Notes: a model not told the origin generated them from the sequence alone. A stretch of 64,000 bases of DNA from Candidatus Woesearchaeota archaeon (GCA_016188215.1 JACPIF010000003.1:35388-99387), one strand, 5' to 3'; positions 8,331 to 59,375 are shown, numbered from the stretch's first letter. Program-made: numbers and translations.

Positions 8331-8435
8331 GAGCGCGTAATGCGCGCTCTACCATAGGGAAGTCCCCGAACAGCAAGGCTACAGCCAGAATCGGGGACTG
8401 TTCACAGCAGCCGAGATTCATCTCGGCTGAGTCAT
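8331..8435. repeat. modular intergenic hairpin repeat, copy A (GCGCG hairpin, inverted gtccccga..tcggggac core, CAGCCGAG-atttatc-CTCGGCTG hairpin)
   Basis: Hairpin gagcgcg-taatg-cgcgctc; a core 'gtccccgaacag...aatcggggac' that is the reverse complement of the cores at 38876 and 45157; 'tgttcacag' followed by the hairpin cagccgag-attcatc-ctcggctg, which is identical to the one at 45297. Confidence 0.75.
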
Positions 8436-8480
8436 GCTCGTTTCTAGTTTTACCCGTTCCTGGTTTTATTATCATAGTCT

Positions 8481-10643
8481 TCACCTATAAGTCGGCTCAA
8501 TGCTTGCCCTGAACTGGGCTGCGAGGATCTCTGATTTCCCAACCTGGCTGATATCTTCAACGTCTAATGAGTCAAATGATGCGCTGTCCGGGCTGCTTAC
8601 AGCATAAAATATAATCTGCTGCGCCCTGTCAAGGTCAGCCTGGCTCAGTACCAATTCCAGGGTTGTTGATCCTTCGTTAAACACTCCGGTAAGCGGGTCA
8701 ATGTGCACTTTCTGCCCAGCAACAATCTTGTCCTTGAACTCCACATAAGTCCTGCCTTGTGCATCCGGCAGGCCATAATAAAGCTCAATGCTCACCGTAT
8801 ACTTGCCCGGCACCAATCCAGGGAGGACCTCTACGCTGCTCTCATTTCCATAATAGATTACCGTTGCAAACAGGTCAGGCTCTGCCTCAGCCTCCTTTAT
8901 CTTCTGGATACTAACAACTGCGTATTCATTCTTCAATAATGGAGCGGGTGATGCATCAAAGTTCCAGGTGCCTCCTGATTTAATGTTCCGCTTCTTCATT
9001 ACCGCGATATTCTTTGCCCTGTACGGCTCAACTGATACAGAGACCTTTCCGTTGTTACATACCACATTCTTCTGCCTGCACATTGCATGGTTCTCAGGAA
9101 GATCGCACCGCACGCTAAGGCTCTGCGGGGAGCTGAACACCTCATGGCCTGAGACTGTAAGCGTGCATCCGCTGCCCACGCATTGCGGCAGGCTGACTTT
9201 GCCTGCGCTTATCCTTCCCACAGAGCAGGCCTCTCCTTCATGCCCATAGGCAATCTCTGCATCCTGTGACAGGTTGCCCGAGCTTGTCGCTATGCTTACA
9301 TTAGCGCAGAACAGCCTTGGATCGCAGAGCAGCGTCCCTGTTGGCGGCAATGTTGCCGGCAGCCCAGTGCCTGTGCAGTTCAATGGCTTGTTGCCCCGTA
9401 CATTTGATTCAAGGTTGAACATGAAATGGTAGCCGCGATTATTCAGTGCAGCAGGATCATAAATATCAATCCTGACAGGATATGAGACATCATAGTAGAA
9501 ATTATAGCGCTGCAGGCCCAGCCAGCTGAAGAGTCCTGTTATGCCCGCTGTCTCCGGCCCGATGAAGTCGCCTCTCACTCCCCTGCCTTTTATGTCAAAA
9601 TAAATGGGCCACCAGCTGAGGTATTCAAAAGTCACCTTCAAGTCTGCATATGTTTCATTTACAGGAACCGTAGCCTTCTGGTAATAGCCTCCTCTTTCAT
9701 CATAGTTGCTTGTCCTCCACACCTGCAGGAATTGGGTATAATAAGGCAATATTGAAAACTGCATGAGGTTCTTTGCATCAGACTTCTGCCAGTACTCCGG
9801 CTTCTTGCTAGGGTCAAAAACACTGGCAGCAGTCGGCGGCAATGCTTCTGCATCAGGCCCCAACCCGAATGCAGTGACCTGCTCAAGTGTCCATCTCTCA
9901 AGGAACGGGTATTTTATCTCGGTATTGGTTATTTTTGAGGCAAACTCGTACAGCCTTGCAATCGGCACATTGACAGAAGCAGTGAACTGTTTCATGGATA
10001 TCTCAGAATTCTCAAGCACTACGCTTATCGGGTAATTGAGGATTACAGAAACTCCGTCACCGGCAACAATTACATTGCTCGTTGCAGGCCCAAGCTCCTG
10101 GACCACAAATCCGTCCTGTTTAAGGCTCCTGAACCCCTGCAGGCAATTCCCCAGATTTTCATTGATATAGCGGCCGAGCTGCCCTTCAATGCTTGGCTCT
10201 CCCTGGTTTTTCCTGAGGTTGGGCCGTTCTGAGCCGCATTGGCAGTTTTTAGTGCACAGGTTATTGCTCTTGAAATGCCACCAGTATGCGATGGCTGTAT
10301 CCTCATTGCTGGGATCAAATCGCACAGCCCTGCCTTCTGTGGGCTCTGCAGGATCTGATGCTATCCCATACCTTCTGGGCTCTATATATCCGCCTGTCTG
10401 GCCGATCCGTACAAGTCCTTCTTCAGCAACTTTTGCAGCGCAATTCTCAACAAATACCTGCACTGCGTTGAACTGGCTTGGAATCTCCTGCTGCTCTTCA
10501 ATCTGCCCTTCGGGCAATGACAATCTTTCCGTGCTGACAATGTAGAGCGTTACACCGCCCAGTAGCAGGATGCCGAGAATTATAAATAAGGTAGTTTGAG
10601 CCCTAGTACTAGCTAAAACCCTACACCCTCTTTTGCATACCAT
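8481..10643 (-). CDS. membrane-anchored large extracellular protein (720 aa), paralog of 12093..14372
   Basis: One N-terminal TM helix (LFIILGILLLGGVTLYIV); a shared 'IAYWWH...NLC' region with 12093..14372 ('IVYWWY...NLC'); Cys-rich. Confidence 0.85.
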   Translation of the reverse strand: MVCKRGCRVLASTRAQTTLFIILGILLLGGVTLYIVSTERLSLPEGQIEEQQEIPSQFNAVQVFVENCAAKVAEEGLVRIGQTGGYIEPRRYGIASDPAEPTEGRAVRFDPSNEDTAIAYWWHFKSNNLCTKNCQCGSERPNLRKNQGEPSIEGQLGRYINENLGNCLQGFRSLKQDGFVVQELGPATSNVIVAGDGVSVILNYPISVVLENSEISMKQFTASVNVPIARLYEFASKITNTEIKYPFLERWTLEQVTAFGLGPDAEALPPTAASVFDPSKKPEYWQKSDAKNLMQFSILPYYTQFLQVWRTSNYDERGGYYQKATVPVNETYADLKVTFEYLSWWPIYFDIKGRGVRGDFIGPETAGITGLFSWLGLQRYNFYYDVSYPVRIDIYDPAALNNRGYHFMFNLESNVRGNKPLNCTGTGLPATLPPTGTLLCDPRLFCANVSIATSSGNLSQDAEIAYGHEGEACSVGRISAGKVSLPQCVGSGCTLTVSGHEVFSSPQSLSVRCDLPENHAMCRQKNVVCNNGKVSVSVEPYRAKNIAVMKKRNIKSGGTWNFDASPAPLLKNEYAVVSIQKIKEAEAEPDLFATVIYYGNESSVEVLPGLVPGKYTVSIELYYGLPDAQGRTYVEFKDKIVAGQKVHIDPLTGVFNEGSTTLELVLSQADLDRAQQIIFYAVSSPDSASFDSLDVEDISQVGKSEILAAQFRASIEPTYR

Positions 10644-10733
10644 TTATAGGCCATAACCCGCCTTTTCTATATATAAAGGTTTCTGGTAGAGCTTTGTATA
10701 GTCTTGAAACCATAAAGAACCACTAAAACCCTG

Positions 10734-10878
10734 CAACTGGCTGCGCCACGCCACCCAGCTGCCCAGTCAGCTGGCACCTGAGGCGACCTCGCTTTTGCTC
10801 GGTCACCAGGTCCGTGATTGTGGATGTGCTCGCAGTTCGCGGACCCCGCACAGTCCAGTTGAGCTAGAGCTCAACTGG
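10734..10878. repeat. modular intergenic hairpin repeat, copy G (divergent core variant)
   Basis: 'gtccgtgatt...gttcgcggac' core variant, followed by 'cacagtccagttgagctagagctcaactgg' (compare 38917 'cacagtccagctctgctttagctgagctgg'). 'ggcgacctcgc..ggtcaccagg' recurs inverted at 59240-59290. Confidence 0.55.
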
Positions 10879-10943
10879 TTCCTGCTCATTTGTAGTAGAT
10901 AATCAAAATCAAAATTTTCCAACATGGGAAAGTAGCTACGAAG

Positions 10944-12100: not shown

Positions 12101-14372
12101 ACACTGGTTCAAGCTGCGCTCTATAGCTTCTCGTAATGTTGGTGATGTCCCCGCCCCTTGCCACGTCATCAAACTTGCTTGGGTTGAATACCTTGTACAC
12201 ATAGAATGTTACCGCTTTGCCGGCATCAAGCGCATTCCTTGGCACGCTCCAATAGCCTGTTTCACTGCTCATTTCAACCCCTCCCACGATAACTGGCTTG
12301 ATAGTTACACTAGGTATGCTGCCTCCTGCAATCCCCGCGCCGCCGGTGGTATCAGTTGATATTACCGTGCCGTCCAGATTCTGGAGGACAGCCCTAACTT
12401 CATAAGTTCCGGGAGCCAGCCTGATTGTCTGCTTTGGATTTTTGGCATCCATTACAAGTGAGCTTGCAATACTGTCATCTTCACCACTCTGCCGCACCCT
12501 GCTTACTGTCAGGGTAACCTGCTCATTTCCAAGCAGTGATCGTGCAGCCTCCCTGAAATTACCTTGAGCCAATCCATTGATATCTGATGCAAGTATCTTT
12601 ACTTCCTTCTCTACAATGGTATCCAGTAACGTATTTACTGCTTTTGTTTCATCCGGCCTGCTCTCAAGCATCACTGTCCTTGCGATTACACCATCTTTCT
12701 CAAGCTTGAGTATTCCCTGCCCAATGCAGACCGGTAGTTTTCCTGCAAATTTCCCATCCGCGTCAGTAGAACCAATAGTGCAGCTCCTGTAATTCCCGCA
12801 GGTGTAGGTTATTGAAACGTCTGGGATAGGATTCTGTTTTGCATCCGAAAGTGCAAGCGTAAGGTTTGCCCCTATCCTTTGGTTTGCATTGCAGAGCAAG
12901 GTCTCAGGAATCCTCGGCCTTGACGTCTTTGCCGTGCTGGTTGTGCACGCGAAATTACAGGTTATGTTGTCTGCATACGACTTGCCGTTCAGCGGGCAGC
13001 TCCATGCAGCTCCTGATTGGGTACATCTGCCTAATGAAGGCTCAGAGCTTTTGAAGGTGACAGAAACCGAGTTAGGATCATAATACCCAAGAGTACCCCT
13101 TCCCTGGTTCCATTCGTGCAGGTCCTTGTTATCCCGTATATTTGCTTCAAGTGCAAACATAAAGGTATACCCATGCTCAGCTTCCGAGAGCAACGAAGCC
13201 TCGTCCCTGATGACGGCAATGACTGGATATGATATGTCATAAAAGAACTCGTAGTAGTTTGTCTGCTCAGGCGGCGCGAAGTTTGAGGGGAATGACTGTC
13301 TTATCACTCTTGGCTGTATTGTGCTTCCGCTCCTTGGCGTTATGTCAAAAAATATCTTCCAGCCGGGGTCATAAAGGAAGCGCATGCTGAGGCTTGGATA
13401 CTCAAAGGGCAGGTATGAAAGGTACAGGCTCTTGTAGAATCCCTGCACCACGCTGCCTGAAGCCTCAATCGGCTTTGCATCCTTTGTCTTGTCAACCTGG
13501 ATGATGTTTATGTTGGGCGCCAGAATCTCATTCCTGATCCTATCCTCAACTTTATCCTTAGGCCATGTCGCAAAAGTTTTCCTGCTGTCAATCCAGCTGA
13601 TTGGCGGTATCTTGTCTGCATCCGGTGCAGAATATACGCTGAACAATCCTAAGGTGATGTCCTCAAGGCTTAGATTATTGATCTCCTCAATCATGGTGAG
13701 CACTGCAACGTCATACACATGCTGGAAATCAAGGTCAAGGTTAATGCTGAAATCTGACATCTCGTACAGCGCATTCTCCTTTCTGATAGTGAGCGGATAC
13801 CTCACTCCAATGCTCACATCATCCCGGTTCACCCTTGCTGTTGCCCCGGGCTTGCCTTCCTGTATCTCAAATCCGGCCTCCTTGAATGAGGCAAACCTAT
13901 CGGTGCATTCCTGCAGGTTCCTGTTGACGTACACATCAACCTGCCTTTGGATATGCTCAATAGAAGGCATTAGGCTTGAGACCCTGCACTCACTGCACAG
14001 ATTGTCAGTCTGTAGGTACCACCAGTACACAATAGGGGTCGTATCTGCTAAAAATGCAGCGTCGCTTTCAGTCGGGCTATTCCTGTCAAGATTAAATGAG
14101 AATCCTGAAAGCTGCGCATCATACGGGTCTATATAGCCTCCATGCGCCCCAAGCTTCTTGAATGCCTCAATGCTTTTGGCCTTGATGCAGGAATCAACAT
14201 ACTCCTTGACCGGCTTGACCCACTCAGGCATTTCAAGCGCCATCACTGCCTCAATATCCTTCTCTTTTATTGTTGCATTGTAGTAGACAATGGTTACAGC
14301 TGCTGCTGCAAGGAACAGGATTCCGAGTATAATAAATACAGCAAGCTGTGATTTCTTGCTTTGAAATATCAT
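12093..14372 (-). CDS. membrane-anchored large extracellular protein (about 759 aa), paralog of 8481..10643
   Basis: Paralogy to 8481..10643. The start is assigned to the Met (MIFQSKKSQLAVFIILGILF...) immediately before the TM helix, as in the paralog. The ORF-track extension to 14672 runs through an intergenic repeat and is rejected. Confidence 0.8.
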   Translation of the reverse strand: MIFQSKKSQLAVFIILGILFLAAAAVTIVYYNATIKEKDIEAVMALEMPEWVKPVKEYVDSCIKAKSIEAFKKLGAHGGYIDPYDAQLSGFSFNLDRNSPTESDAAFLADTTPIVYWWYLQTDNLCSECRVSSLMPSIEHIQRQVDVYVNRNLQECTDRFASFKEAGFEIQEGKPGATARVNRDDVSIGVRYPLTIRKENALYEMSDFSINLDLDFQHVYDVAVLTMIEEINNLSLEDITLGLFSVYSAPDADKIPPISWIDSRKTFATWPKDKVEDRIRNEILAPNINIIQVDKTKDAKPIEASGSVVQGFYKSLYLSYLPFEYPSLSMRFLYDPGWKIFFDITPRSGSTIQPRVIRQSFPSNFAPPEQTNYYEFFYDISYPVIAVIRDEASLLSEAEHGYTFMFALEANIRDNKDLHEWNQGRGTLGYYDPNSVSVTFKSSEPSLGRCTQSGAAWSCPLNGKSYADNITCNFACTTSTAKTSRPRIPETLLCNANQRIGANLTLALSDAKQNPIPDVSITYTCGNYRSCTIGSTDADGKFAGKLPVCIGQGILKLEKDGVIARTVMLESRPDETKAVNTLLDTIVEKEVKILASDINGLAQGNFREAARSLLGNEQVTLTVSRVRQSGEDDSIASSLVMDAKNPKQTIRLAPGTYEVRAVLQNLDGTVISTDTTGGAGIAGGSIPSVTIKPVIVGGVEMSSETGYWSVPRNALDAGKAVTFYVYKVFNPSKFDDVARGGDITNITRSYRAQLEPVFS

Positions 14373-14394
14373 ATTTGAACGAGCCTTTCCTATT

Positions 14395-14600
14395 TTGGAA
14401 CTGGTCAAGCTGGGTAAACATTTCGAAAACCATGGTTTTCGGATGTCTCGAAACTTTGTTTCGAAACATGTCCGCGATTCAAGCTGTAAAGCCTTCTGTT
14501 CGCGGACCAACGTCACCACGGAGCGAAGCCAGAGGAACTTTAGTTCCTTGGCCAAGAAAATGCTATGCATTTTCTTTGGCTTTAGCTGAGCGACCACTTT
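14395..14600. repeat. modular intergenic hairpin repeat, copy B
   Basis: Hairpin tcgaaac-ttt-gtttcga; core 'gtccgcgattcaagctgtaaagccttctgttcgcggac' (a ccc/ggg to cgc/gcg compensatory variant of the 38876 and 45157 core); hairpin ccagaggaac-tttag-ttccttgg; hairpin gaaaatgc-tat-gcattttc. Confidence 0.75.
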
Positions 14601-14631
14601 GCTCATTTTTCCAATTTTAATACTCTTTATT

Positions 14632-29576: not shown

Positions 29577-29629
29577 GGCAATGTTTATATACCATTTCTC
29601 AGTAAAGCAGTAGTAAGTAAGTTAACTGA

Positions 29630-29727
29630 CTTTGAAACTAGCAACTCCAGAGAAACGCTTTGCGTTTCTTGGCCAAGGAACTTTCAGTTCCTCTGGGGTC
29701 ACACGGGCGGCGCGCAGCGCCGTGCAA
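29630..29727. repeat. modular intergenic hairpin repeat, copy F
   Basis: Hairpin gaaacgc-ttt-gcgtttc (a T-A to C-G compensatory variant of cgaaatgc-ttt-gcatttcg at 45197); 'cttggccaaggaac-tttcag-ttcctctgg', which is the 14521 module in inverse orientation; hairpin ggcgc-gca-gcgcc. Confidence 0.65.
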
Positions 29728-29758
29728 ATTATCAAAATTTTAAAATTCAGATAAACAA

Positions 29759-37377: not shown

Positions 37378-37457
37378 GGCGATGATTAGCCGACCCTTGG
37401 CACAGTAGCCTGACTTTTGTCAGGCTCGTCCTTTGCAAATTATTTGTTTCCTTTGCT

Positions 37458-38789: not shown

Positions 38790-38825
38790 TCAACACCTTC
38801 TTTTTGAAATGTATTAACTTTGACC

Positions 38826-38946
38826 TTTGCACCGCGCTGCTGCGCGGCATGCGCTTCGCGCACTGCAATATGTCCCCGATTCTGGCGGTAAGCTTTCTGT
38901 TCGGGGACTGTTCACAGTCCAGCTCTGCTTTAGCTGAGCTGGTCCT
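38826..38946. repeat. modular intergenic hairpin repeat, copy C
   Basis: GC hairpins (tgcgc-ttc-gcgca); core 'atgtccccgattctggcggtaagctttctgttcggggac'; 'tgttcacag'; hairpin ccagctc-tgctttagc-tgagctgg. Confidence 0.75.
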
Positions 38947-38997
38947 GCACATTTCCTAGTTTTCTTACTTTTGCTAGTATAAAATACAATACATTAC

Positions 38998-40467
38998 TTA
39001 CCATGAAAGCATGCCATGCGCTTTCTTGTAGTTCTTGTATGTTGGCCACATGAATCCCCTTGCGTCCCTTTCTGCATCGCGCTTCTCGTACACTACTGCA
39101 AGCTTGCTCATTCCTTTTTCATGGGGTTTGCCTTTCTTTGATCCAAGGCCGAACAGCTCGCCGAAACCTTTGAACATTGAAGTGAATGGGTCGTATATAG
39201 TGGCAGGCTTCTTCTGCTCAGGTTCCTTGCGCTCAACCATCTCGCCTGCTTCCTCAAGGTATTTCATCAGCTCGTCGCCTAGCGCGACCATTGCATCCTC
39301 CACGCTCCGGTCAACCAGCGCAAGCAGCTCAAAATCCTCCTCTGCCCTGTACCTCTTGTAATTCTCAATATCATCCTTGCTCCACCCGTAGCCTCTTGCG
39401 GTGACTTTTATTTCACCGATGTGGATGGGCCCTCTCTGATAGCCTTCTGCCTGGTACTTGAGCTCGGGCCTTACCCTGAACCTGAAATTGTAGATGGCGA
39501 CTCCCATGTACTTCTTATTGGTTCTCGGAAGCCTTTTGCATAATAGCTCAACTTCTATGACAGCCCCTTCAAACGCCGTGATCAGGTCAGGCGACGTTTC
39601 CTTTTGGCTCTCCAAAACTTCAGAATGCATGCGCTTTATGTTCCTGAGATACGGCTTGACCCACATCATGTACATCTTGATTATGTCAAAATGCTGCCTG
39701 AGGTAGCGCAGCGTAAATAATCTTCTTGACTTGAGTTCCTTGTAAGTATGCTCTTTCCATTCAAGGTAGCTGCGCAGCTTCCGCTTCAATACTTCCTTCA
39801 CCTTGCGGTTGAAGTCTAGCTTTTCAACAACCCTGTCAACATCATCTGTTCTCAGTGGATGCACGCTGAAGAATAAATCAGGCAGGGTGGTGAACTGCAG
39901 CTCGCGTGCCATGCCGAACACAGATGCAGGATTCTTTGCCCCGCCCTCTGCCTGGTCAATGAATACTCCTTTTAGCGTGATTTCCGCGCTTTCCCGTGAC
40001 CTGCTTTTTTCATCGTAAGAGTCTGCGTAGTAATGCAGCCTCTCATCCAATATGCGAAGCTCCCTTACCAGCTGGAACAATTCCCTTACCATCTTGCCGA
40101 TGGTCGCAAGAAACTGGCTTACCTTGTCCTGCTGCAACCCTATGCGCTGCTGGGAAACGCCAAAGAATGTTGAATGTTCTGTCCCTACAAACACATCAGT
40201 TATCTTCTCAACCTGGCACCCAAGATCATAGCGTAGGTAGTTCAGTACCCAGAAATACGTTTCCTCAAGACTGGCAGAGAATGTCTCATATACAAGGCGG
40301 TAGCGTTTGGTAGGCTTGGGGTAGCCTGTCTTGACCATCTGGTCCTTCCCCTCTTCCATGATCTCTTCTTCGTACTGCCCTTTAGGCTTGAAATACTCGT
40401 CCTTGGTCATCCGCGGCTTTACCGTGAGCGCAGGAGTAGGCTTAGCCGTTATTAGTGTTGATGCCAT
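38998..40467 (-). CDS. hypothetical protein (489 aa)
   Basis: Long ORF. Confidence 0.65.
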   Translation of the reverse strand: MASTLITAKPTPALTVKPRMTKDEYFKPKGQYEEEIMEEGKDQMVKTGYPKPTKRYRLVYETFSASLEETYFWVLNYLRYDLGCQVEKITDVFVGTEHSTFFGVSQQRIGLQQDKVSQFLATIGKMVRELFQLVRELRILDERLHYYADSYDEKSRSRESAEITLKGVFIDQAEGGAKNPASVFGMARELQFTTLPDLFFSVHPLRTDDVDRVVEKLDFNRKVKEVLKRKLRSYLEWKEHTYKELKSRRLFTLRYLRQHFDIIKMYMMWVKPYLRNIKRMHSEVLESQKETSPDLITAFEGAVIEVELLCKRLPRTNKKYMGVAIYNFRFRVRPELKYQAEGYQRGPIHIGEIKVTARGYGWSKDDIENYKRYRAEEDFELLALVDRSVEDAMVALGDELMKYLEEAGEMVERKEPEQKKPATIYDPFTSMFKGFGELFGLGSKKGKPHEKGMSKLAVVYEKRDAERDARGFMWPTYKNYKKAHGMLSW

Positions 40468-40670
40468 TTCAAAAATGTTCCATTTTTGAGACCCTGAAAA
40501 TGGTTACATTTTCATGGTATCCCTCTTTTACTGTAGTACTGACTAGCTACTAGTATACTATTTAGGTGCTTTATATAGTTTTCTGTTTGAATCTTTTAAG
40601 TAATTATACTACTAATAGGTAATAACAAAATCATAAGATTTATATAGTAGAAAACATGTGTTTATAGTAT

Positions 40671-41279
40671 ATGACAAAAAATCCATATATTGGATCAGAT
40701 AATCCTTTGACAGATATTACTAAACCATATAGTCTTAGAAATGAGCGTCTTTTATACGGGGCTGGTGTAGCCGGTCATGGTATTTTAGGGGCAGCTGCCG
40801 GTGGTACTGGCAAGCTTATTTTGACAGTTGCAGGGCAAGGTGTTGATGCCACTATGAATACTCCAGCTGCCGCTAAGCAAGCGGCCCAACGAGTATATGA
40901 CAGCGCTAAAGAGACAGCAATTAACACCACACGGAAGGCATGGGCTTTTGTCACACGTACAAAGCCTGAAGAATACAAAGCTGAAGTTAGGCCTGAGCCA
41001 GAATACTCCCGAGCTTTTGAGAAGCAGTGGGGCGGTGTATATGGTGATGTTTTCCTTACATTAGCTCTTTTGACAGGCCTCGCATGGGGCGCAGTCAAGA
41101 ATAGCAGATGGTATCTTGATGCCAAAAGGCAAGCTGCAGATATCAATGTTCAGCGTGCACGTGCATATGCAGATTTCCAGCGCGCAGAATCAGATAGCCA
41201 GCTCGCATCTTCAAATCTTGCTTTAGCAAGAGCTGCTATCGCAGGCAAAGGCACTCTGGAAGAAAAGACCCAAGCATAA
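40671..41279 (+). CDS. hypothetical Ala/Gly-rich protein (202 aa) with one hydrophobic segment
   Basis: ORF, GC-rich relative to its flanks; TATA-like 'gatttatatag' about 30 bp upstream. Confidence 0.55.
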   Translation: MTKNPYIGSDNPLTDITKPYSLRNERLLYGAGVAGHGILGAAAGGTGKLILTVAGQGVDATMNTPAAAKQAAQRVYDSAKETAINTTRKAWAFVTRTKPEEYKAEVRPEPEYSRAFEKQWGGVYGDVFLTLALLTGLAWGAVKNSRWYLDAKRQAADINVQRARAYADFQRAESDSQLASSNLALARAAIAGKGTLEEKTQA

Positions 41280-41282: not shown

Positions 41283-41657
41283 TCAAAGTCTGCTCAACAC
41301 CCTCAGAACATCAAACGGGCTGACTTGCCTGTTTCTGTAAAACTTTACAATTAAGTGTTTATCTTCACTAGTTACCGAAGCTACTGGTTTTTCTGTTTGT
41401 GCAATATAGCCTACTACTTTTGTATGATCCCCTTCCTTTCTTGAATAAAGACCATCTGAAACAACGTTGAATGCTTGGGCAACTGCATATGCAAGGTTAT
41501 TAGGATCTTTAATATGGCCCGTCTTTTGAAAGCGCGCAGTCACAGGCCCTGATCCCTGCTGACCATTCAAAGTAACATATTCGCCGCGCAAGTGAAAGCC
41601 ATGCCTTTCATATACTTCTATATTCGGCATACCCAGATGAACTCCTTCTAAACCCAT
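41283..41657 (-). CDS. hypothetical protein (124 aa)
   Basis: ORF convergent with 40671..41279. Confidence 0.5.
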   Translation of the reverse strand: MGLEGVHLGMPNIEVYERHGFHLRGEYVTLNGQQGSGPVTARFQKTGHIKDPNNLAYAVAQAFNVVSDGLYSRKEGDHTKVVGYIAQTEKPVASVTSEDKHLIVKFYRNRQVSPFDVLRVLSRL

Positions 41658-41833
41658 CTTAAAACCCTAATGTTAATTCCTGAAGAAACTTATATATAAA
41701 GTTTTATGCCTAAACTGACCAAATCCCTACTCTCTATACACACATTAGCAAACTATATATTACTGTTAATATATAATCTCCATAGGAAATCAAAGATTTC
41801 CTGGTCTCAAAAATCCCTGATTTTTGAAACATT

Positions 41834-43098: not shown

Positions 43099-44805
43099 TC
43101 AGCTATGGAGCGGATGCTCATGCCCAATCTCCTTCCTTAAGACAAGCTCCTTGATGTGCTGCAGCTTGTAGGGAAGGACGCTGCTTGCTTTGCCAGTGAA
43201 CCTTTCAAGAAGTCCTGAGGCATATTCCCCTCCTAAAAAGTGAGGCAATATTACGTAGTCTGCTCCAGCCTTGTACAACTCAAGCGCATCTTCTATTGAA
43301 TTTGCAGTAAGCATGATAACTGCCTTCTTATTTGCATCTTTAACTTTTTCCAGCAGCAGCAAGCTGTCATAAATGCTTGGAACAGTTGAAACCACCATCT
43401 TTGCATGCTTGAAATCAATGGCGTCAAGCACCTCCTCATCACCTATATCCCCATAAAGCGTAAAGGTTTGCTTATCCCTTATTTTCTCAATAATTTCAGG
43501 ATTATAGTCTACAACGAGCACTTTCATATCCAGATTCTTTAACTTTCTCCGTATGCTATACCCTATCCGGTTGTGGCCTGCCAGCACGACATCATAGCGA
43601 TCAGCTTTTTTAGATACATACTCCTCTTTCCGGAACCTCAGCAAATCCAGGAACCCCAGATATGGCTTGCATACCCTATATACTGTTTCCTGGTACTGCA
43701 TGAGATATGTGGTGAATGCAATGGTTATTGCGGTGACAACCATCACAACAGAGACGACCTCCTGCGATATAACCCCAAGCAGAAAACCTTGCGCAATTAA
43801 TATCAGGGAAAACTCACTAAGCTGTGAGATGCCTATGCTTGAAAGGAATGAAATCTTCTTGTCATATCCCATGAGCGAAAGCGGGATCATGACGCTTAAT
43901 GGGTCTATTACCATAACAAGCAGTATAAATAGAACTGTAATCCAGATATATCCCAATGCCGCTCCGAGCACAATCTGCATGCCAAGAGATACAAAGAATA
44001 TTGTGGCAAAGAAATCACGTAAAGATCGCACTTTTGCAACAATCTCGATGTGAAATGGAGAGGCTGCAAGGCTGATCCCTGCCAGAAATGCGCCTATGGC
44101 AATGGAATAATCAAGAAAATCTGCCAGAAAAATCATAATAAAAAGCCAAGAGACCGAGCTTAAGAAAAGCAGCTCTTGCGATTTTGCAATCCTTGAAAAT
44201 AAGTAAGGAGCGAGCCAGATAAGCAATGCAGTCAAGCTGAACAATACAGCCCCCTTTACAAGAGCAATAAATATCGGATATATCTGGAAAGAGCTGCCTA
44301 CGGTTGCAAGCAGCGCAAGCGCAAGTATTGCAACAAAGTCCTGCACTAACAATATGCCTATCATAAGCCTGCCGTGCAGGGTCTCAATCTCTTTTTTATC
44401 TGAGAGTATCTTTACTACAATAAGCGTGCTGCTGAACGCAAGCGCCAGCGATACATACAATGATACTATGTGGTTGAAGCCAAGCCATAGTGCCAGCAAA
44501 TAGCCCAGGAATGTTGTCGCCGCAATCTGTGCAATACCAGCAATGACCGCAGCTTTTCCGACCTGGCGCAGCTTTCTAAAGTCTAACTCCAGCCCAACAA
44601 TGAAAAGCATGAACGCTATGCCTAAAAGTGAGAGCGTGTTGATGACTTCTATGTCTTCAATTAGCGCCAGGCCAGACGGCCCGATGACAAGCCCGGCTAA
44701 AATGTATGAAAGGATAGGTGGCTGTTTGAAAAACCTGATAATAATTGCTACACCTGTTGCAAAGATAAGTACAATCCCCAGCGTAAAAAACAAGTCAAGC
44801 TCCAT
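43099..44805 (-). CDS. monovalent cation:proton antiporter (CPA2/KefB-like) with a C-terminal TrkA-N/RCK domain
   Basis: About 12 TM helices followed by 'VLAGHNRIGYSIRRKL...VVDYNPEIIEKI...DIGD' (Rossmann fold, KTN). Confidence 0.9.
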   Translation of the reverse strand: MELDLFFTLGIVLIFATGVAIIIRFFKQPPILSYILAGLVIGPSGLALIEDIEVINTLSLLGIAFMLFIVGLELDFRKLRQVGKAAVIAGIAQIAATTFLGYLLALWLGFNHIVSLYVSLALAFSSTLIVVKILSDKKEIETLHGRLMIGILLVQDFVAILALALLATVGSSFQIYPIFIALVKGAVLFSLTALLIWLAPYLFSRIAKSQELLFLSSVSWLFIMIFLADFLDYSIAIGAFLAGISLAASPFHIEIVAKVRSLRDFFATIFFVSLGMQIVLGAALGYIWITVLFILLVMVIDPLSVMIPLSLMGYDKKISFLSSIGISQLSEFSLILIAQGFLLGVISQEVVSVVMVVTAITIAFTTYLMQYQETVYRVCKPYLGFLDLLRFRKEEYVSKKADRYDVVLAGHNRIGYSIRRKLKNLDMKVLVVDYNPEIIEKIRDKQTFTLYGDIGDEEVLDAIDFKHAKMVVSTVPSIYDSLLLLEKVKDANKKAVIMLTANSIEDALELYKAGADYVILPHFLGGEYASGLLERFTGKASSVLPYKLQHIKELVLRKEIGHEHPLHS

Positions 44806-44962: not shown

Positions 44963-45134
44963 GCGAACCTCTTTTTATAAGGGATTATAAGGGGAGTTGC
45001 CCGCCCAGCCTGGACGAGCAGCTCCGTCAACCCCTCACTTTGTGGTGAGCTTGTCTATTTTTGTAATCTCTTTTGTGCTTTTTCCTTTTCTTTGCATTGC
45101 TTTTTTTTTATTACTCTACTATATGTGCATGACT

Positions 45135-45325
45135 GGCGCGAAATGCGCGCCCAATTTGTCCCCGATTCTCGCTGTAAGCTTTCTGTTCGGGGACCATCGA
45201 AATGCTTTGCATTTCGGGGGTTTCGAAACTATGTTTCGAGACTAGGAATTGGGCACAATTCCTTTGTTTCGGAACGATAGTTCCGCAACTATTCACAGCA
45301 GCCGAGATTTATCTCGGCTGAGTCT
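45135..45325. repeat. modular intergenic hairpin repeat, copy D (composite, 5 hairpin modules)
   Basis: ggcgcg-aaatg-cgcgcc; core 'tgtccccgattctcgctgtaagctttctgttcggggac'; cgaaatgc-ttt-gcatttcg; tcgaaac-tat-gtttcga; aattgtgccc/gggcacaatt hairpin; 'tcacag' followed by cagccgag-atttatc-ctcggctg. Confidence 0.8.
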
Positions 45326-45346
45326 CCAAATTATTAGTCTCTTTCC

Positions 45347-45526
45347 CTAGCTTTTCTTGAACCTCCGGTTATACTCTGCAAGGAAACCCTTTTCTGATAA
45401 GTATGCAATCAGGATATTCTTCACTTTCTCCGCATCTTTCGTTCCCAGCCCGTACAGGCTGCTCAGTATCCTTGCCTGCTCCTTGTCAATTGAGATAGAG
45501 ACCCGTTTAGTCACGCAGCATGCCAC
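45347..45526 (-). CDS. ribbon-helix-helix (CopG/antitoxin-like) protein, GTG start (about 59 aa)
   Basis: 'VTKRVSISIDKEQARILSSLYGLGTKDAEKVKNILIAYLSEKG' is a classic RHH beta-strand plus two helices. There is no in-frame ATG, so a GTG start is required. The direct repeats ATTGTTACAAAT (x2) lie upstream. Confidence 0.45.
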   Translation of the reverse strand: MACCVTKRVSISIDKEQARILSSLYGLGTKDAEKVKNILIAYLSEKGFLAEYNRRFKKS

Positions 45527-48930: not shown

Positions 48931-49002
48931 GGTGTATGTGAAATTGTCTTACGTATTAAAACTTTCTTACTGCTAATTTGCAACTGATCATACTGTATAT
49001 CC

Positions 49003-49082
49003 ATGTCCCCGTTTCCGGAAGTCAATTTGCTGTACGGGGACCACTCGCCCAGTGAGACGAGATTTATCTCGTCTCAAGTCAA
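49003..49082. repeat. modular intergenic hairpin repeat, copy E
   Basis: Core 'atgtccccgtttccggaagtcaatttgctgtacggggac' with an extended 8-bp stem; hairpin gagacgag-atttatc-ctcgtctc, a compensatory variant (C-G to A-T) of cagccgag-atttatc-ctcggctg. Confidence 0.75.
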
Positions 49083-49138
49083 GCACCAAAAATTTAGTTT
49101 TAATTACCTCTCGAAATCCTTACTAAAACATCTAGAAA

Positions 49139-49172: not shown

Positions 49173-51662
49173 ATGGTAACCACAAAATTCCAAAAGGAAT
49201 TTTGGGTCCCGAAAATCAGGAGATTTTCGTGGAAAAGAGGAGGTAGGCAGTCTCAGCTAGCTGTGCATCCGATTATGTTTCTCTATATTGCATTTGGCTT
49301 TGCAATAGCAGCCCTGGCTGGCGTCAAGATATACAATTACGTGCAGGACAGTCAATGCAGGACTGCCCTCATCACTCTGAAGAGCAATGTTGATTCAGAT
49401 TTCACTGAGATTGCTTCACGGCAGGGCTCAGTCATGGAGCGTTCTTATACCTATTCCTGCGACACCGATGCGATCTACTTTGTGGATGCTGCCCAGAACA
49501 TTCCCCAGGATGCATTTAACCAGAGTGCTGAGATCCAGAACAGCCTTTTCGGCAGCACGACAGATAACCTCTTTATCCTTCGGAAAGGTAGGTTATTTGC
49601 CTCTTTCAACATAGGCCAACTCTCATTGCGCCATCCGTATTACCAGTGCTTCAACACGACTGGAGTAAAGAGGCTTGAGCTTCTTATCCAGGGTGAGGGA
49701 AACGGTGTTTCATTGTCACATACAGAGAAATACAAAAGCACAGGATATGACTGCACTGATTACAGCCTTCCGGAAGAGATTGCAGTACAGCCGGGCGCTG
49801 ATAAGGCAAGCAGCATCATAGGAAACTCAGCAGAATACCTGGCACGAAGCTACGGATTGGATGCAAGGACAGCATTTGAGCGTTTTAATGAGACAGAGGA
49901 GCGTGTAGAGATTGACCGGGAATTCCAAAAATTAGAGACAGGCACTAAAGTCAAGATAAAGATACGCCCGAAGAACCGCAAGGTTATTGACAATTTCATC
50001 TACATAGAGGACATCCCAAAAGCATGCCTGAGCTTCCTGACAGATTATGAGATTGAGGATCAAGGCGAGGTAGTCACTGCAGACCCTGTAATAGCATGGC
50101 ACTTCGCTTCAATAGAGGGCAGGCAGGAGGCAAGTTATTTCATACCTGATATTGAGCTTAAGGAGCGCTGCAAGGAACTGATTGATGGTGTAGGCCTGGC
50201 TGAGAACTTTGTAGATTCAAAAGAGGCAATCAATAATGACCCGCCAATCCTCGCCCTGCCTGACCTGTTCCTTTCAGAAGATGATGCATTGACAACAGAC
50301 CTAGCTCCATATATTTCTGACCCTGATAACCTAAAGAAAGAACTGAGGGTGAGCATAGCATCCCCTGCAAACCTTCGTGCAGAGCTTGACGGATTCATCC
50401 TGGTGCTGACTCCAAATCCGGATTGGAATGGTGCTGAAAAGCTTTATATCACTGTGCAGGACCAGGCGCAGGCGACAGTCCAGGCAATAACTGCTACAGT
50501 CCATCCGGTAAATGATGGGCCAGTGATAACTTCAACACCCCTTACTCAGGCTGTCCAATACCAGCAGTATAACTATCAGGTGACTGCCACTGACCTTGAG
50601 GCTGAGATAGAGCATGACATCCTTAAATACGCCTTGCTGGAATATCCTGCAGGGATGTCAATTGATGAAGCAGGATTAATTAGTTTCATTCCACAGCAGT
50701 CAGGGGAATTTACTGTAAAAGTGCAGGTTTCCGATAGGGGGACTTCAGCAGTCCAGCAATACACGCTTAATGTTCAGCACATAAACAAGGCTCCCCAGTT
50801 TGCAGCGCTGCCTGCAGTCTCATTGCAGGGTCTGGGAACAAATGATAACGGCGGCAGGGATAATGTTATAGCAAACCTCTGGGTGTTTGTTTCAGACGAT
50901 AATGATCCCAAAACTTTCACTTATTCAATAATCGCGCAGACCAATCCTGGGCTGGTATCCTGCTATGTTGATTCTATAAACAATCTTGACTGTGTTGTTA
51001 AGAAAAATGAGGATGGCTATTCAGACATCTCAATCAGCGCTTATGACGGGCAGTACAGCGCTTATACGACAGTGAGGGCAACTGTGAAGACAGTTCAAGT
51101 CCAGCAGGTTCAGCCTCCACCCACGCCTCCTCCCCCGCAGCCTGCGCAACAACCGCAGCCTGAACCTCAGCCCCAGACACAGCCCCAGCAAGAACCTGAG
51201 CCGCCTCCTCCAGAGCCTCCCCAGTCTTCTGCTTATTCCACAAAGATTATTAGTGGGGATAACCCCAAATGCGATTCTGGAGAAACTATAAGGAAATACT
51301 GGGCAAGCACCACCTGTTTTGACTCAGTCAATTGCAATACCTGCTCAACTGCTGCGGGATGGAGCGCTGACGCGCCAATATGCTTGTATGGAGGTTACCA
51401 CAAGAAAAAGTGTGGGGCCCCAGAGCTAACCTGCAAGGCAAATACCTGGACACAGGTTGAATGCTCATGCACAGGCAAGCCTGTAAGGCGGTGCGAGGGC
51501 AATAATGTATACGATACTGATAGCTGCGGGACAAGCTCGCTCATTAAATACTGCGGTGATTTGAAATGCCTGAGCGGCAGATGCTGCTATAAAAAGACAA
51601 AAGAGAATTGCCAGTGGTGGAAATGGCTCTTTGGCCAATGCTCAGAATGGGTGTGCCCATGA
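49173..51662 (+). CDS. membrane-anchored surface protein (829 aa) with a PQ-rich linker and a Cys-rich C-terminal domain
   Basis: N-terminal TM helix; paralogy of residues 60-200 with the next gene; 'PPPTPPPPQPAQQPQPEPQPQTQPQQEPEPPPPEPP' linker; 22 Cys in the last 140 aa. Confidence 0.8.
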   Translation: MVTTKFQKEFWVPKIRRFSWKRGGRQSQLAVHPIMFLYIAFGFAIAALAGVKIYNYVQDSQCRTALITLKSNVDSDFTEIASRQGSVMERSYTYSCDTDAIYFVDAAQNIPQDAFNQSAEIQNSLFGSTTDNLFILRKGRLFASFNIGQLSLRHPYYQCFNTTGVKRLELLIQGEGNGVSLSHTEKYKSTGYDCTDYSLPEEIAVQPGADKASSIIGNSAEYLARSYGLDARTAFERFNETEERVEIDREFQKLETGTKVKIKIRPKNRKVIDNFIYIEDIPKACLSFLTDYEIEDQGEVVTADPVIAWHFASIEGRQEASYFIPDIELKERCKELIDGVGLAENFVDSKEAINNDPPILALPDLFLSEDDALTTDLAPYISDPDNLKKELRVSIASPANLRAELDGFILVLTPNPDWNGAEKLYITVQDQAQATVQAITATVHPVNDGPVITSTPLTQAVQYQQYNYQVTATDLEAEIEHDILKYALLEYPAGMSIDEAGLISFIPQQSGEFTVKVQVSDRGTSAVQQYTLNVQHINKAPQFAALPAVSLQGLGTNDNGGRDNVIANLWVFVSDDNDPKTFTYSIIAQTNPGLVSCYVDSINNLDCVVKKNEDGYSDISISAYDGQYSAYTTVRATVKTVQVQQVQPPPTPPPPQPAQQPQPEPQPQTQPQQEPEPPPPEPPQSSAYSTKIISGDNPKCDSGETIRKYWASTTCFDSVNCNTCSTAAGWSADAPICLYGGYHKKKCGAPELTCKANTWTQVECSCTGKPVRRCEGNNVYDTDSCGTSSLIKYCGDLKCLSGRCCYKKTKENCQWWKWLFGQCSEWVCP

Positions 51663-53301: not shown

Positions 53302-53669
53302 TGAAAGAGGTATGGGTTGAATTCTCCGAAGAATCAAATATAGATTACCTTGAATTACAGAAACAAGTTTTATTGGAAAAAGAGCAAGGGAGGGAAAATT
53401 CATTTAACCTGCAGTTGCTTAAGGCGGTAGAGCGGGAAAAGAGCAATCTAAAGATAGATCCGCAACATGGAACCCATATCCCAAGAAGGAACATACCTAA
53501 AAGCTTGATTGATAAATATGGCACTGATAGATTGTGGAAGATTGATTTAGTGGGTTATTGGAGATTACTATACACAATTACAGGTGACGAAGTTAAGATT
53601 ATTGCGTTTGTTCTTGAATTTATGGACCATAAGAAATATGATAAGCTATTTGGGTACAGGAAAAAATAA
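53298..53669 (+). CDS. RelE/ParE-superfamily toxin-like protein (123 aa)
   Basis: C-terminal 'LWKIDLVGYWRLLYTITGDEVKIIAFVLEFMDHKKY' fits the RelE L.g..W..R.g.YR.iY.i....v.I...g.H...Y pattern. Confidence 0.5.
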   Translation: MMKEVWVEFSEESNIDYLELQKQVLLEKEQGRENSFNLQLLKAVEREKSNLKIDPQHGTHIPRRNIPKSLIDKYGTDRLWKIDLVGYWRLLYTITGDEVKIIAFVLEFMDHKKYDKLFGYRKK

Positions 53670-55611: not shown

Positions 55612-55613
55612 AC

Positions 55614-57376: not shown

Positions 57377-57522
57377 CTAAAGTCAGGCTCCCAGTCAACA
57401 TGGAAGGTTTCTTCTTTCCCGTCATGCTCATGCACTAGCTCGTTGGCATCCACGCATTCTGCATAGTCGGGAATCTTGACAGTTTCCTTGCATTTCGGGC
57501 ATTTGGTCTTCCAGCTGCTCAT
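57377..57522 (-). CDS. small zinc-ribbon protein (48 aa, MSSWKTKCPKCKETVKIPDYAEC...)
   Basis: ATG to TAG ORF with a CPKC...C/H cluster; too short for the ORF track. Confidence 0.35.
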
Positions 57523-57558
57523 GATTAGAGAATCTATTTAGCGATATTTAAATTTATT

Positions 57559-58203
57559 CTAAACATACTTCTCCACACCCTGCCTTGGGCATAATTTAAA
57601 AAGCACGCACTTGGTGCAAATTGGAACAGGAGCCTTGCACACAGCCCTCCCATGCTCTATAACCAAATAGGTGAATTTAAACCACTTATCTTTGGGCAGG
57701 AGCGCCATCAAGTCCTTCTCTATTTTAGTTGGATCTGTATGCTTAGTCAGCCCTAACCTAAACGTGACTCTCTTCACATGGGTATCAACTGCAATCCCCT
57801 CAACAATATTATAGGCATTGCCCAGCACTATGTTTGCGGTCTTCCTGGCAACACCTGGCAGCCCAAGCAATGCAGCCATAGTATTTGGTACTTTGCCATT
57901 ATGCTGCTCTACAATCATCTTTGCTGCCCCCTGGATTGATCTTGCCTTTGCCCTATAAAAGCCAGTAGAGCGGATCAGCTGCTCAAGTTCCTTAATGTCC
58001 GCATTCGCATAATCCTTTGCTGTCTTGTATTTCCTGAATAATGCAGGCGTCACCATGTTAACTCTCTTGTCAGTGCACTGCGCAGAAAGTATTGTTGCAA
58101 CAAGCATCTCCATAGGATTTGAGAAGTGCAGTGCTACTTTTGCATCGGGATAGGTTTTGTTCAGGAGAGTATAGACTTGGAGAGCCTTCTTTTTCTCATC
58201 CAT
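57559..58203 (-). CDS. nth: endonuclease III (HhH-GPD DNA glycosylase with a 4Fe-4S cluster)
   Basis: 'LLGLPGVARKTANIVL', 'VDTHVKRV', and the C-terminal Cys ladder 'CKAPVPICTKCVLFKLCP'; TATA-like box about 30 bp upstream. Confidence 0.9.
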   Translation of the reverse strand: MDEKKKALQVYTLLNKTYPDAKVALHFSNPMEMLVATILSAQCTDKRVNMVTPALFRKYKTAKDYANADIKELEQLIRSTGFYRAKARSIQGAAKMIVEQHNGKVPNTMAALLGLPGVARKTANIVLGNAYNIVEGIAVDTHVKRVTFRLGLTKHTDPTKIEKDLMALLPKDKWFKFTYLVIEHGRAVCKAPVPICTKCVLFKLCPRQGVEKYV

Positions 58204-58389
58204 GGGAAAACCTGGTATTCCACAACCTTTATAAAATATAGTATAACAATAAAGCTACTTCACGCCGAAGTAACTCAGCCTGGCTAGAGTGATGCTCTCA
58301 TAAAATCATTTGGGCAAGGCATAAGTCGGGAGTTCAAAAAGAACTTATGGCACACGCCATGGTTCTGGAATTTCTCCCCTTCGGCATTT

Positions 58390-59121
58390 TTAAGCTACAC
58401 GCCTGACAGTAATATCCCTTCCCCTGACTCTGACATGTACTTCTTCCACCACTTTCTGTTCCAGGGAGAACCTAGCTCTTGTCACACTTCCCCTGTCCAC
58501 ACCTTTTAAGAGTTTATTGAAGTCTTTTGTTAGCAAGACCCTGCTATTGGGGTATAACAGCTCGGTAATGCTAAGCGCTGTATAGTTAGGCGCGCCTGTC
58601 CTATTTGAGAGCAGCCATACAGGAAATGTTTTCTTGCCTGGCTGACTTCCATGGTATCTATAATTGAGGTATGCGGAGCCTATATCATCTAACGGCGCAT
58701 CTTTTCTGATGGGAACCTGTGTAGCAGTCCATCCGCGCTTGAATGTAGCATATGGCTGCTCAGCATCCCAATGATAGGATATTTCCGTATCCCTATGCAA
58801 TAAAATTGTAGGCAGAATTCCTGACATTTCTATTGCAGATTCAGTTGGCCTAAAATGCCCGTTTGCAATTATACCTTTTGAATCTACATTGACTGAAGCA
58901 AGGAACCTTATACCGCCCTTTATTGTTATGTGATAAGTATTTGCCGCCCTATCTATTTTTTCTTGGAGGGTCAGCGGTAGCGTTATAGCAGTTTCTCCAA
59001 CGCTGCCTATAGCTTCATACAGGTAAGTATTATAAGTTTCTGCACGAGCCATCTCAGGCAAGCCAAAAGACGTGTAGGCTAGCGCAAGAAAATGGCGCCT
59101 TGTCAGTTCCAGCCTTATCAT
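58390..59121 (-). CDS. exported protein with a twin-arginine (Tat)-like signal (243 aa)
   Basis: 'TRRHFLALAYTSFGLPEMARA' matches S/T-R-R-x-F-L followed by an AxA cleavage site. Confidence 0.6.
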   Translation of the reverse strand: MIRLELTRRHFLALAYTSFGLPEMARAETYNTYLYEAIGSVGETAITLPLTLQEKIDRAANTYHITIKGGIRFLASVNVDSKGIIANGHFRPTESAIEMSGILPTILLHRDTEISYHWDAEQPYATFKRGWTATQVPIRKDAPLDDIGSAYLNYRYHGSQPGKKTFPVWLLSNRTGAPNYTALSITELLYPNSRVLLTKDFNKLLKGVDRGSVTRARFSLEQKVVEEVHVRVRGRDITVRRVA

Positions 59122-59174
59122 GTGCCCCCCTTACTTATTTGATGAAGCATCTATATAAAATATTTGTAAAAAAA

Positions 59175-59375
59175 ACGCCGGCGCCCGGACTTTCAAACCG
59201 AAAGTTTGAGCCTTCTGGTCTTTGAACCGAGAGTCCCTTGCGGGAGCAGTTCGCTCTCTGGTGACCGAAGCGACGCGAGGTCGCCCAGGTGCAAGCTGAC
59301 TATGCAGCTTCGAGATTCAGCTTTCCCATCTGCCGCTCTACCGGATTAAGCGACGCCGGCATAACAGACAGGAGG
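59175..59375. repeat. intergenic hairpin/repeat cluster, copy H (distant member)
   Basis: Direct repeats ggactttcaaaccg / ggtctttgaaccg; 'ggtgaccgaagcgacgcgaggtcgcc' is the inverse of 10795-10830; multiple GC hairpins. Confidence 0.45.

Follow-up and report, generated by a model that had tools for sequence, protein, structure and literature searches.

Mosaic hairpin elements in the gene spacers of a Candidatus Woesearchaeota archaeon and a related insert in a tRNA gene

Repetitive extragenic palindromic (REP) sequences and bacterial interspersed mosaic elements (BIMEs) of enterobacteria and pseudomonads are short, GC-rich imperfect palindromes that lie in gene spacers and form mosaics with other motifs. 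To our knowledge, and in the papers on REP and the REP-associated tyrosine transposase (RAYT) cited below, mosaic repeats of this kind have been reported from bacterial and not from archaeal genomes. The genomes of DPANN archaea are among the smallest and most compact known. Here we describe a family of hairpin-rich elements in 64,000 nt of a metagenome-assembled genome of Candidatus Woesearchaeota archaeon (GCA_016188215.1, JACPIF010000003.1:35388–99387), the whole of which is called the window. The family is real and lies far above chance. With a probability of roughly 0.55, its members are non-coding mosaic palindromic intergenic elements of the REP/BIME, BOX or MITE (miniature inverted-repeat transposable element) type, belonging to one Woesearchaeota (DPANN) clade and hitherto undescribed. 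This reading is ranked first because the copies are dispersed, their ends resemble inverted repeats, their modules are mosaic, nested and flipping, they are gained or lost between strains, and their stems are lineage-specific. The family is a new one of a kind known from bacteria. It is unusual in its archaeal DPANN host, its long flipping loop, the remodelling of its cassettes, nesting, persistence at orthologous positions, and a module that occurs as a tRNA insert. A compact DPANN genome still keeps hairpin-rich elements of 100–430 nt in a sizeable share of its spacers; the family is a natural system for module shuffling (loop flips, nesting, and cassette replacement between conserved ends), and it bears on the question whether they work as RNA or DNA in archaeal cells.

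As in REP and BIME, orientation flips, stems change in pairs and are lineage-specific, elements persist vertically over long times, and co-transcription is probably frequent. The principal palindrome of the family, M1, differs from REP in that it has no general GTAG or CGTC tag. Its stem starts with GTC after variable bases (AAGTC, ATGTC, TTGTC), and GTAG-TC is found next to M1 only in the eno-prs copies of two lineages described below (L020 and L026). The loop of M1 is long (20–23 nt) and conserved whereas that of REP is short, there are no REP doublets, and no RAYT gene was seen in the window. The REP/RAYT papers (PMC2817692, PMC3116915, PMC3733652) describe bacterial genomes, while the host here is an archaeon.

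BOX of Streptococcus pneumoniae, Correia/NEMIS, RUP and ERIC-type MITEs resemble the family as non-coding units of 100–250 nt with inverted-repeat or inverted-repeat-like ends and strong predicted structure. BOX is likewise modular with variable module number (boxA-boxB(n)-boxC), and is located near promoters and between co-transcribed genes. Unlike these, the present elements have no target-site duplication or partner insertion sequence that we could find, contain far more types of module, nest modules in the loops of others, and are more diverged from copy to copy. Rickettsia palindromic elements are also selfish-looking palindromes of a reduced genome, and can enter structural RNA and protein genes. 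They are fixed single units, often in frame in protein genes, whereas here a tRNA insert was seen and no copy in a coding region. Finally, the palindrome-associated elements derived from IS200/IS605 (PATEs) and the omega-RNA scaffolds of TnpB are directional multi-hairpin non-coding units without target-site duplication, common in archaea. No tnpA or tnpB was found among the open reading frames (ORFs) of the window, and there was no match to an IS605-type or omega-RNA family in Rfam.

Architecture of the elements and covariation of their stems

A preliminary description of this DNA had listed eight intergenic sites built from shared hairpin modules, and every module sequence that it quoted is present where it was placed. 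Seven of the sites belong to one family. The eighth (site H, 59175–59375) is a tRNA gene on the minus strand and not an intergenic repeat, and a ninth site (37359–37445, element I) had been missed. The elements of the window are:

Element A, 8318–8452, plus strand: left end ATGAGCATACT; M2 8331–8349; M1 8362–8398 with inverted loop; TGTTCACAG; M5 8408–8429; right end AGTCATGCTCGTTTCTAGTTTT.
Element B, 10723–10897, plus strand: hairpin 10755–10774; GCACAG; hairpin 10855–10878; end TGCTCATTTGTAG; degenerate M1 with one G–T pair at 10810–10844.
Element C, 14372–14612, plus strand: GAAA-type hairpins 14424–14441 and 14448–14464 (M4); M1 14470–14507; M6 14529–14552; M3 variant 14554–14576; end TGAGC..GCTCATTTTT.
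Element D, 29625–29735, plus strand, without M1: M3 variant 29651–29669 and M6 29672–29696 (a block inverted relative to C); hairpin CGGCGC-GCA-GCGCCG 29708–29722; end TGCAAATTA.
Element I, 37359–37445, plus strand: M1 variant GTCGGCTA..TAGCCGAC 37359–37394 with inverted loop, overlapping the annotated GTG start of the 35152–37377 ORF; TTGGCACAG; hairpin 37407–37426; end TGCAAATTA.
Element E, 38822–38966, plus strand: GC hairpins 38832–38847 and 38850–38862; M1 38872–38908; TGTTCACAG; hairpin CCAGCTC..GAGCTGG 38919–38943; end TGCACATTTCCTAGTTTT.
Element F, 45125–45345, plus strand: left end GCATGACT; M2 45135–45151; M1 45158–45194; M3 45198–45216; M4 45223–45239; AGGAATTG hairpin 45244–45263; CGGAAC hairpin 45270–45285; TATTCACAG; M5 45299–45320; AGTC end.
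Element G, 48971–49100, plus strand: left end TGCAAATTAG (reverse strand) 48974–48983; M1 with extended stem 49005–49041; GCCCAG; M5 variant TGAGACGAGA-TTTA-TCTCGTCTCA 49053–49076; AGTCAAGC end.

The M1 pattern (GTCCSCGWTTC-N13-17-CTGTWCGSGGAC) occurs five times in the window and in none of 100 shuffles; beyond the pattern there are a degenerate sixth copy in B and a seventh, with a different stem, at 37359–37394. There are three occurrences of the M5 core GAGATTYATCTC, where none is expected. Perfect hairpins (stem of at least 7 bp, loop of 3–8 nt) number 39, compared with about 19 in shuffles, and 14 of them are contained in the 1,278 nt of the eight originally listed sites, 2% of the window. 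All-against-all BLAST shows that modules are common to the sites and differently combined in each, as had been proposed.

Elements are 80–240 nt in size, and about one-third of the longer gene spacers carry one. A common plan is followed by the window copies, by two low-coverage groundwater contigs from Hainich (L010 and L011) retrieved by a metagenome scan for the M1 pattern, and by L020, a second contig of the window population. From the left end the strand passes through an optional GC-rich hairpin (M2) into M1, a 37-nt hairpin with a stem of 7–9 bp (GTCCSCG/CGSGGAC) and the loop ATTC..GCTGTAAGC..TTCTGTT. A spacer follows that carries a CACAG motif, as (T)TGGCACAG or TGTTCACAG, and leads into the second hairpin. 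The apex of this may be conserved (GAGA-TTTA-TCTC) while its stem sequence is free (CAGCCGAGA, TGAGACGAGA, CCAGCTC, CCAGTTGAGC, TGCGCTCAC, TAGCCTGAC, GGTGAGA and GCGCTGAGA are seen). The right end is AGTC(A)TGCWMRTTT, often with TAGTTT next to it. Left ends show the right-end motif on the opposite strand, giving short, degenerate ends that resemble imperfect inverted repeats, with a consensus of approximately AGTCATGCWCRTTT(N)TAGT. The 9-nt core of this motif occurs 21 times against about 10 expected, and nine of the occurrences are at element ends.

A second class of module has stems of the GAAA/TTTC type (CGAAATGC, TCGAAAC, CGAAAAC, AGAAACGC, AGGAAC, AGGAATTG and others). These hairpins are placed between or ahead of the parts of the core, singly or in blocks, in variable number and order, and they may be gained, lost, inverted or nested in the loops of other hairpins. 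The resulting mosaics read M2-M1-M3-M4-Mx-My-M5 in F, M3-M4-Mx-My-M2-M1(inverted)-M5 in L011, and M2-M1(inverted)-M5 in A.

Several observations adjoin the catalogue. Two GAAA-type hairpins (CAAAATTCC-AAAA-GGAATTTTG and CGAAAATC-AGGA-GATTTTCG, 49183–49229) lie in the first 60 nt of the annotated 49173–51662 ORF. The true start of this ORF is probably further downstream, and element G may extend as far as these hairpins; a look-up of the NFACT-like protein that adjoins G gave no record. An ORF of about 55 aa on the minus strand (45349–45516, VTKRVSISIDKEQARILSSLYGLG...), ribbon-helix-helix-like and without a Pfam match, has its stop codon inside the right end of F. At 40467–40514 and 41754–41829 there are hairpins with AT-rich stems (TCAAAAATG..CATTTTTGA, TGAAAATG..CATTTTCA, AGGAAATC..GATTTCCT). 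They form a 33-nt inverted repeat pair, 79% complementary and 1,297 nt apart, that encloses two small genes (40671–41279, plus; 41283–41657, minus), and may be further GAAA-type members.

The paired changes reported for the stems of modules 1, 3 and 5 are genuine. In ten copies of M1, 97.5% of the stem cells are paired and three of the eight pairs are altered on both sides; the covariation score was reached in none of 500 shuffles. Module 3 occurs as CGAAATGC/GCATTTCG, AGAAACGC/GCGTTTCT and AAGAAAATGC/GCATTTTCTT, and module 5 as CAGCCGAGA/TCTCGGCTG and TGAGACGAGA/TCTCGTCTCA with a constant loop. The covariation points to selection on structure, and holds also in orthologous copies of other lineages. 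It fits RNA hairpins and single-stranded or cruciform DNA hairpins alike. A covariance model built from the set of ten M1 copies, applied to relatives as the preliminary description had suggested, recovered untrained copies in L020 (35.7 and 28.8 bits) and in two more distant lineages, L026 (E 0.019) and L028 (E 0.039), and found no match in three more distant Woesearchaeota.

Strand scores from this model were used to orient M1. Copy A scores 53 bits on the minus strand and 18 on the plus strand, and copy E 57 on plus and 21 on minus, so that the core of A is inverted relative to the right flank TGTTCACAG that it shares with E, as had been noticed earlier. The loop is inverted in the same way, with the same downstream flank, in L010, L011 and the eno-prs copy of L020, and overall about half of the copies have it each way. 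Such flips probably arise by recombination or template switching between the arms of the stem. Wobble pairs as opposed to C–A mismatches are not confined to one strand: M1 of B has its G–T pair on the plus strand, and the hairpin shared by B and H has a C–A mismatch on the same strand. The loop flip and the mixed strands argue against a strand-specific RNA role for M1.

This bears on an unlikely alternative, in which each element would be the gene of a structured small RNA or would encode a long structured leader, with transcription starting from an AT-rich, TATA-like stretch by the left end that often serves the divergent neighbour, and stopping in the T-rich right end (TGCTCGTTTTT, TGCTCATTTTT). 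The core is indeed directional with a right end that is always T-rich, at A, C, D, E and F the element strand has TATA-like boxes, seen by eye, some 25–35 nt upstream of the first hairpin, the stems covary, and orthologous copies are conserved above the neutral level. Yet a conserved loop that occurs on either strand would give a wholly changed RNA sequence in about one copy in two. Many of the T runs are just three or four T long, there is no Rfam match, and the module content differs between orthologous copies of close relatives, which is unusual for a functional RNA. Inspection led us to reject a K-turn, C/D box, H/ACA or bulge-helix-bulge fold of M1. Tandem GA pairs and C or D boxes are missing from M1, no ACA box directly follows the stem, and its internal loop is asymmetric (5/7 nt) in place of 3-nt bulges around a 4-bp helix.

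An M1 that works equally in either orientation would suit double-stranded or cruciform DNA sites bound by a chromosomal protein with a role in chromatin, topology or segregation, the GTCC...GGAC half-sites being the putative recognition unit. The M1 stem is largely uniform within a genome and specific to the lineage (GTCCCCG/GTCCGCG, GTCCGCC, GTCTGCTC/GTCGGCTTA), as expected with a co-evolving binder. The spacing is roughly regular: M1 is found about once per 7–9 kb in four lineages (seven copies in 64 kb and two in 14.5 kb, all intergenic) and is absent from the three more distant Woesearchaeota. Stems nevertheless differ even within a genome (I compared with A–G in the window), no candidate protein was identified, and this reading accounts neither for the many other hairpin modules nor for the CACAG and end motifs. 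We therefore regard DNA sites of this kind as very improbable.

Placement and orientation relative to genes

The window has a GC content of 45%, and most of its genes, including three giant ORFs, have no Pfam match. A proposed link of the elements to giant surface-protein genes is weak, as domains of the surface-protein type were found only in the ORFs at 49173 (Big_9, He_PIG) and 10976. Four of the nine sites lie between divergent gene starts, while the five or six convergent junctions (12093, 31583, 35152, 41283, 42848) have spacers of 0–15 nt and no element. The placement of terminators is thus not what is observed, and a scan for bacterial-type promoters and terminators was uninformative and did not single the elements out. 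Among the three identities first considered, a MITE/REP-like element is the best supported and a terminator module is weak.

Judged by the succession of M1, CACAG, hairpin and end motif, every one of the eight elements of the window lies on the plus strand. Copies had been thought to occur in both orientations; in the window inversion is limited to sub-modules, namely M1 in A and I and, in D relative to C, the M6-M3 block. Replication-strand bias was considered as the source of this uniformity and rejected: two L020 elements, 4.6 kb apart, point opposite ways, and GC skew follows the coding strand. Relative to the flanking genes the orientation varies, being sense at rps27e-eIF2alpha and antisense at eno-prs and at A, C, E, F and I. 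At tandem sites the T-rich end is mostly on the antisense strand. The left end faces a gene start at six loci, which together with the uniform orientation would favour small-RNA genes with their own start. Site I has no room for such a promoter. It occupies the whole 80-nt spacer between two co-directional minus-strand genes, and must therefore be co-transcribed. More generally, the elements are probably co-transcribed, since they lie inside or beside transcription units, and would fold as RNA hairpins in the spacers; secondary roles of the kind held by REP and BIME may have been acquired.

A co-transcribed hairpin in a spacer might also be a cis-acting feature of the host kept by selection, protecting the upstream mRNA from 3′ exonucleases, marking it for processing, or providing insulation or termination. 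Here the co-transcription of site I and the retention by a streamlined genome of 100–430-nt spacers only at these elements are in favour, as are the persistence of position and the level of conservation described in the next section. The divergent sites have no upstream mRNA to protect or terminate, however, and convergent junctions have no element. Neither the variable orientation relative to flanking genes nor the terminator scan agrees with it, and a strain that has lost a 104-nt hairpin block (below) is otherwise identical. On balance we consider this unlikely.

Persistence and turnover in related lineages

Relatives were gathered with the eIF2alpha of L011 as the probe, giving L020 (92% amino acid identity), L026 (GCA_023269535.1; 73%) and L028 (68%). 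L028 comes from the same sample as the contigs L006–L009, which carry an antiporter 74% identical to that of the window (Na+/H+ antiporter, 43099–44805, minus strand). Elements occupy the same spacers in these lineages (68–92% identical proteins), at rps27e-eIF2alpha, at eno-prs and upstream of the antiporter. The rps27e-eIF2alpha spacer is long (263–433 nt) and has an M1-type hairpin in L011, L020, L026 and L028, with lineage-specific stems (GTCCGCG, GTCTGCTC or GTCCGCC). The eno-prs spacers of L020 and L026 share an orthologous element comprising an M5-like hairpin, GGGTA, M1, ATAT..ACA and TTGYAMATTAGT; three of nine M1 pairs differ by double changes, and the outer stem of M5 is altered. 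Upstream of the antiporter operon, at a distance of about 200 nt, the window and L006 each have an M1-type hairpin, in opposite orientations. Woesearchaeota that are more distant (about 50% antiporter identity) have no such elements, and their spacers are short.

Within conserved positions the interiors are remodelled. In L020 and L011, whose eIF2alpha proteins are 92% identical, the rps27e-eIF2alpha spacer keeps about 97% identity in its flanks and at the ends of the element, while an interior of about 180 nt cannot be aligned. The L020 element consists of M2, an M1 variant and an M5 stem that has a 64-nt insert of two hairpins in its loop. Recombination or gene conversion among copies, with the conserved ends as anchors, probably accounts for an exchange of interiors. 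L006, L008 and L009 contain, and L007 cleanly lacks, a 104-nt block of four hairpins, the contigs being otherwise about 99.6% identical; the block recurs reversed in the rps27e spacer of the same 74% lineage. Dispersed related copies persist at the same spacers with paired stem changes and interiors remodelled much faster than their flanks, and one hairpin block is polymorphic between strains and present elsewhere too. The comparison of strains that had been proposed thus revealed a polymorphism in the 74% lineage, whereas E and I of the window are invariant. Logan assemblies of runs SRR12113383-431 contain the strain of the window, and their contigs from other samples are 99.98–100% identical to it, with no variation in E or I. 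Contigs from three samples end inside F, all at 45321, and short-read contigs end inside D too, as expected at repeats. In practice the elements break short-read assemblies of these metagenome-assembled genomes.

Some further features of these contigs were noted. L020 has a 542-nt non-coding stretch (12168–12710) with hairpins CCAGAAAACC..GGTTTTCTGG and CCCAGAAAATC..GATTTTCTAGG, like the polymorphic block. A 26-nt stretch, GGAGGTGAGATTTATCTCACCGACTA, is identical in different lineages at different loci, the rps27e spacer of L011 (586–611) and the eno-prs spacer of L026 (5432–5459); it holds a perfect Shine-Dalgarno-like GGAGGTGA, half buried in a hairpin. Within the coding region of PAC2, L020 (4934–4967) and L026 (1805–1838) have a GTC..GAC hairpin at orthologous positions, with two paired stem changes (GTCCAGC/GCTGGAC compared with GTCAAGT/ACTTGAC). 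It could be a chance occurrence or a structured site within the gene. Logan contigs of several samples begin or end at about 40100–40136, within the 38998–40467 ORF, which suggests a repeat or strain heterogeneity there, unrelated to the hairpin elements.

If the elements are mobile, their spread would require an enzyme acting in trans, either a transposase or an HUH-type nuclease, encoded elsewhere in the genome. A number of results weigh against the REP/BIME-, BOX- or MITE-like reading. Essentially all window ORFs of at least 100 aa were searched with Pfam, and no transposase or RAYT-like gene was found; the sole hint of a TnpB-type domain is a zinc-ribbon match, weak and under the family threshold, of a 142-aa ORF to Cas12f1-like_TNB. 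Neither the L006/L007 indel junctions nor the element ends show a target-site duplication; a recurring NTAG was all that was seen. Within a genome, copies share 70–95% identity, unlike the near-identical copies of a recent burst. The inverted-repeat ends are short and degenerate and are partly BRE/TATA-like (transcription factor B recognition element), e.g. TGCAAAG + ATTTATAAAA at L020 1122–1140, and could be functional motifs in place of transposon termini. The single orientation of eight out of eight elements has a chance of about 0.008 if orientation is random and the copies are independent. Finally, the core of the eno-prs element is 67% identical between L020 and L026, compared with 39% at the fourfold-degenerate sites of four flanking genes, sites that are near saturation in these lineages, and with 46% in alignments to shuffled sequence. 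Orthologous position and conservation above the neutral level are at least as compatible with a function for the host as with a selfish nature of the elements.

The family appears to be narrowly distributed. The M1 pattern was the sole query scanned against representative genomes, and in 185,579 of them in GTDB gave two matches, both in Gemmatimonadota, approximately the chance number for a 40-bit pattern and in unrelated context. It matched only the two Hainich groundwater contigs in metagenome collections and nothing in viral contigs, and a blastn comparison of element F with plasmid and phage collections gave no match. A match of the repeat elements to an Rfam family, the possibility of which had been raised, was sought and none was found: at the gathering score there are no matches in the window, and in E-value mode the whole window returns tRNA-Glu only.

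Insert-bearing tRNA genes and their relation to element B

The window contains three tRNA genes that are overlooked at default settings, so that standard finders would miss them:

tRNA-Met(CAT), 58264–58386, plus strand: one insert of about 14 nt following position 37 and another of about 34 nt at 59/60 in the T loop; escapes default ARAGORN and Rfam.
Site H, 59176–59360, minus strand: class-II tRNA gene, found by ARAGORN after removal of inserts.
tRNA-Glu(CTC), 60516–60604, minus strand: 15-nt intron; found by ARAGORN -i or in Rfam E-value mode (48.5 bits), absent from Rfam gathering mode with default filters.

Site H has an acceptor stem of 7 bp (GCCGGCG/CGCCGGC), the D arm GCTT-AATCCGGTA-GAGC, a long variable arm TCCC-GCAA-GGGA, and the T arm CTCGG-TTCAAA[31-nt insert]T-CCGGG. 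The discriminator is G, followed by TTTTTT. There are at least two inserts, one of 31 nt in the T loop and one of about 70–80 nt in the anticodon region. When T-loop and anticodon-region inserts were removed in varied ways, 152 of 376 deletion variants were called as tRNA by ARAGORN, the variable arm being long, and Ser predominates among the variants listed; the gene is probably tRNA-Ser. Its anticodon is ambiguous, being GGA or CGA according to where splicing is assumed, and there is a perfect loop CTCGAAG. Rfam gave no match to site H and related loci.

The resemblance of site H to the family, which had caused it to be listed with the repeats, is due to true homology between its insert and site B. 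Positions 10757–10809 of B match 59258–59309 of the tRNA gene with 83% identity over 53 nt (BLAST, E about 1e-8 to 1e-9), and this segment sits in the insert of the anticodon region. A module common to the tRNA insert and B implies movement of the insert sequence at the DNA level. For Thermoproteales it has been proposed that tRNA introns transpose as DNA (Fujishima 2010, as reviewed in PMC4090602). There too, inserts at non-canonical positions have homology elsewhere in the genome; the related copies there are all introns of other tRNA genes, whereas the relative of site H is part of an intergenic repeat. We found no report of a tRNA insert homologous to part of an intergenic repeat.

These data also allow a different description of the family, to which we give rather low credence: that of clade-specific, conserved structured elements at set spacers, whose cassettes are exchanged between loci and reside in tRNA genes as spliced inserts. 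If true, it would link intergenic repeats and archaeal tRNA introns as one pool of mobile modules. Within the preferred REP/BIME-, BOX- or MITE-like reading, too, the family bears on the origin of archaeal tRNA introns, posing the question whether a single mobile sequence pool supplies both tRNA inserts and intergenic repeats.

A match to the 5′ half of a tRNA at 53414–53452 lies inside an ORF and was rejected as looking like chance. Approximately 45 nt upstream of tRNA-Glu there is a TGCTCATTT motif. In L006 a GC-rich region of about 165 nt (7040–7200) stands in an AT-rich spacer; it has no Rfam match, is closed by the helix GGGTTTCA../..TGAAACCC, and may be another insert-bearing tRNA or an unknown RNA.

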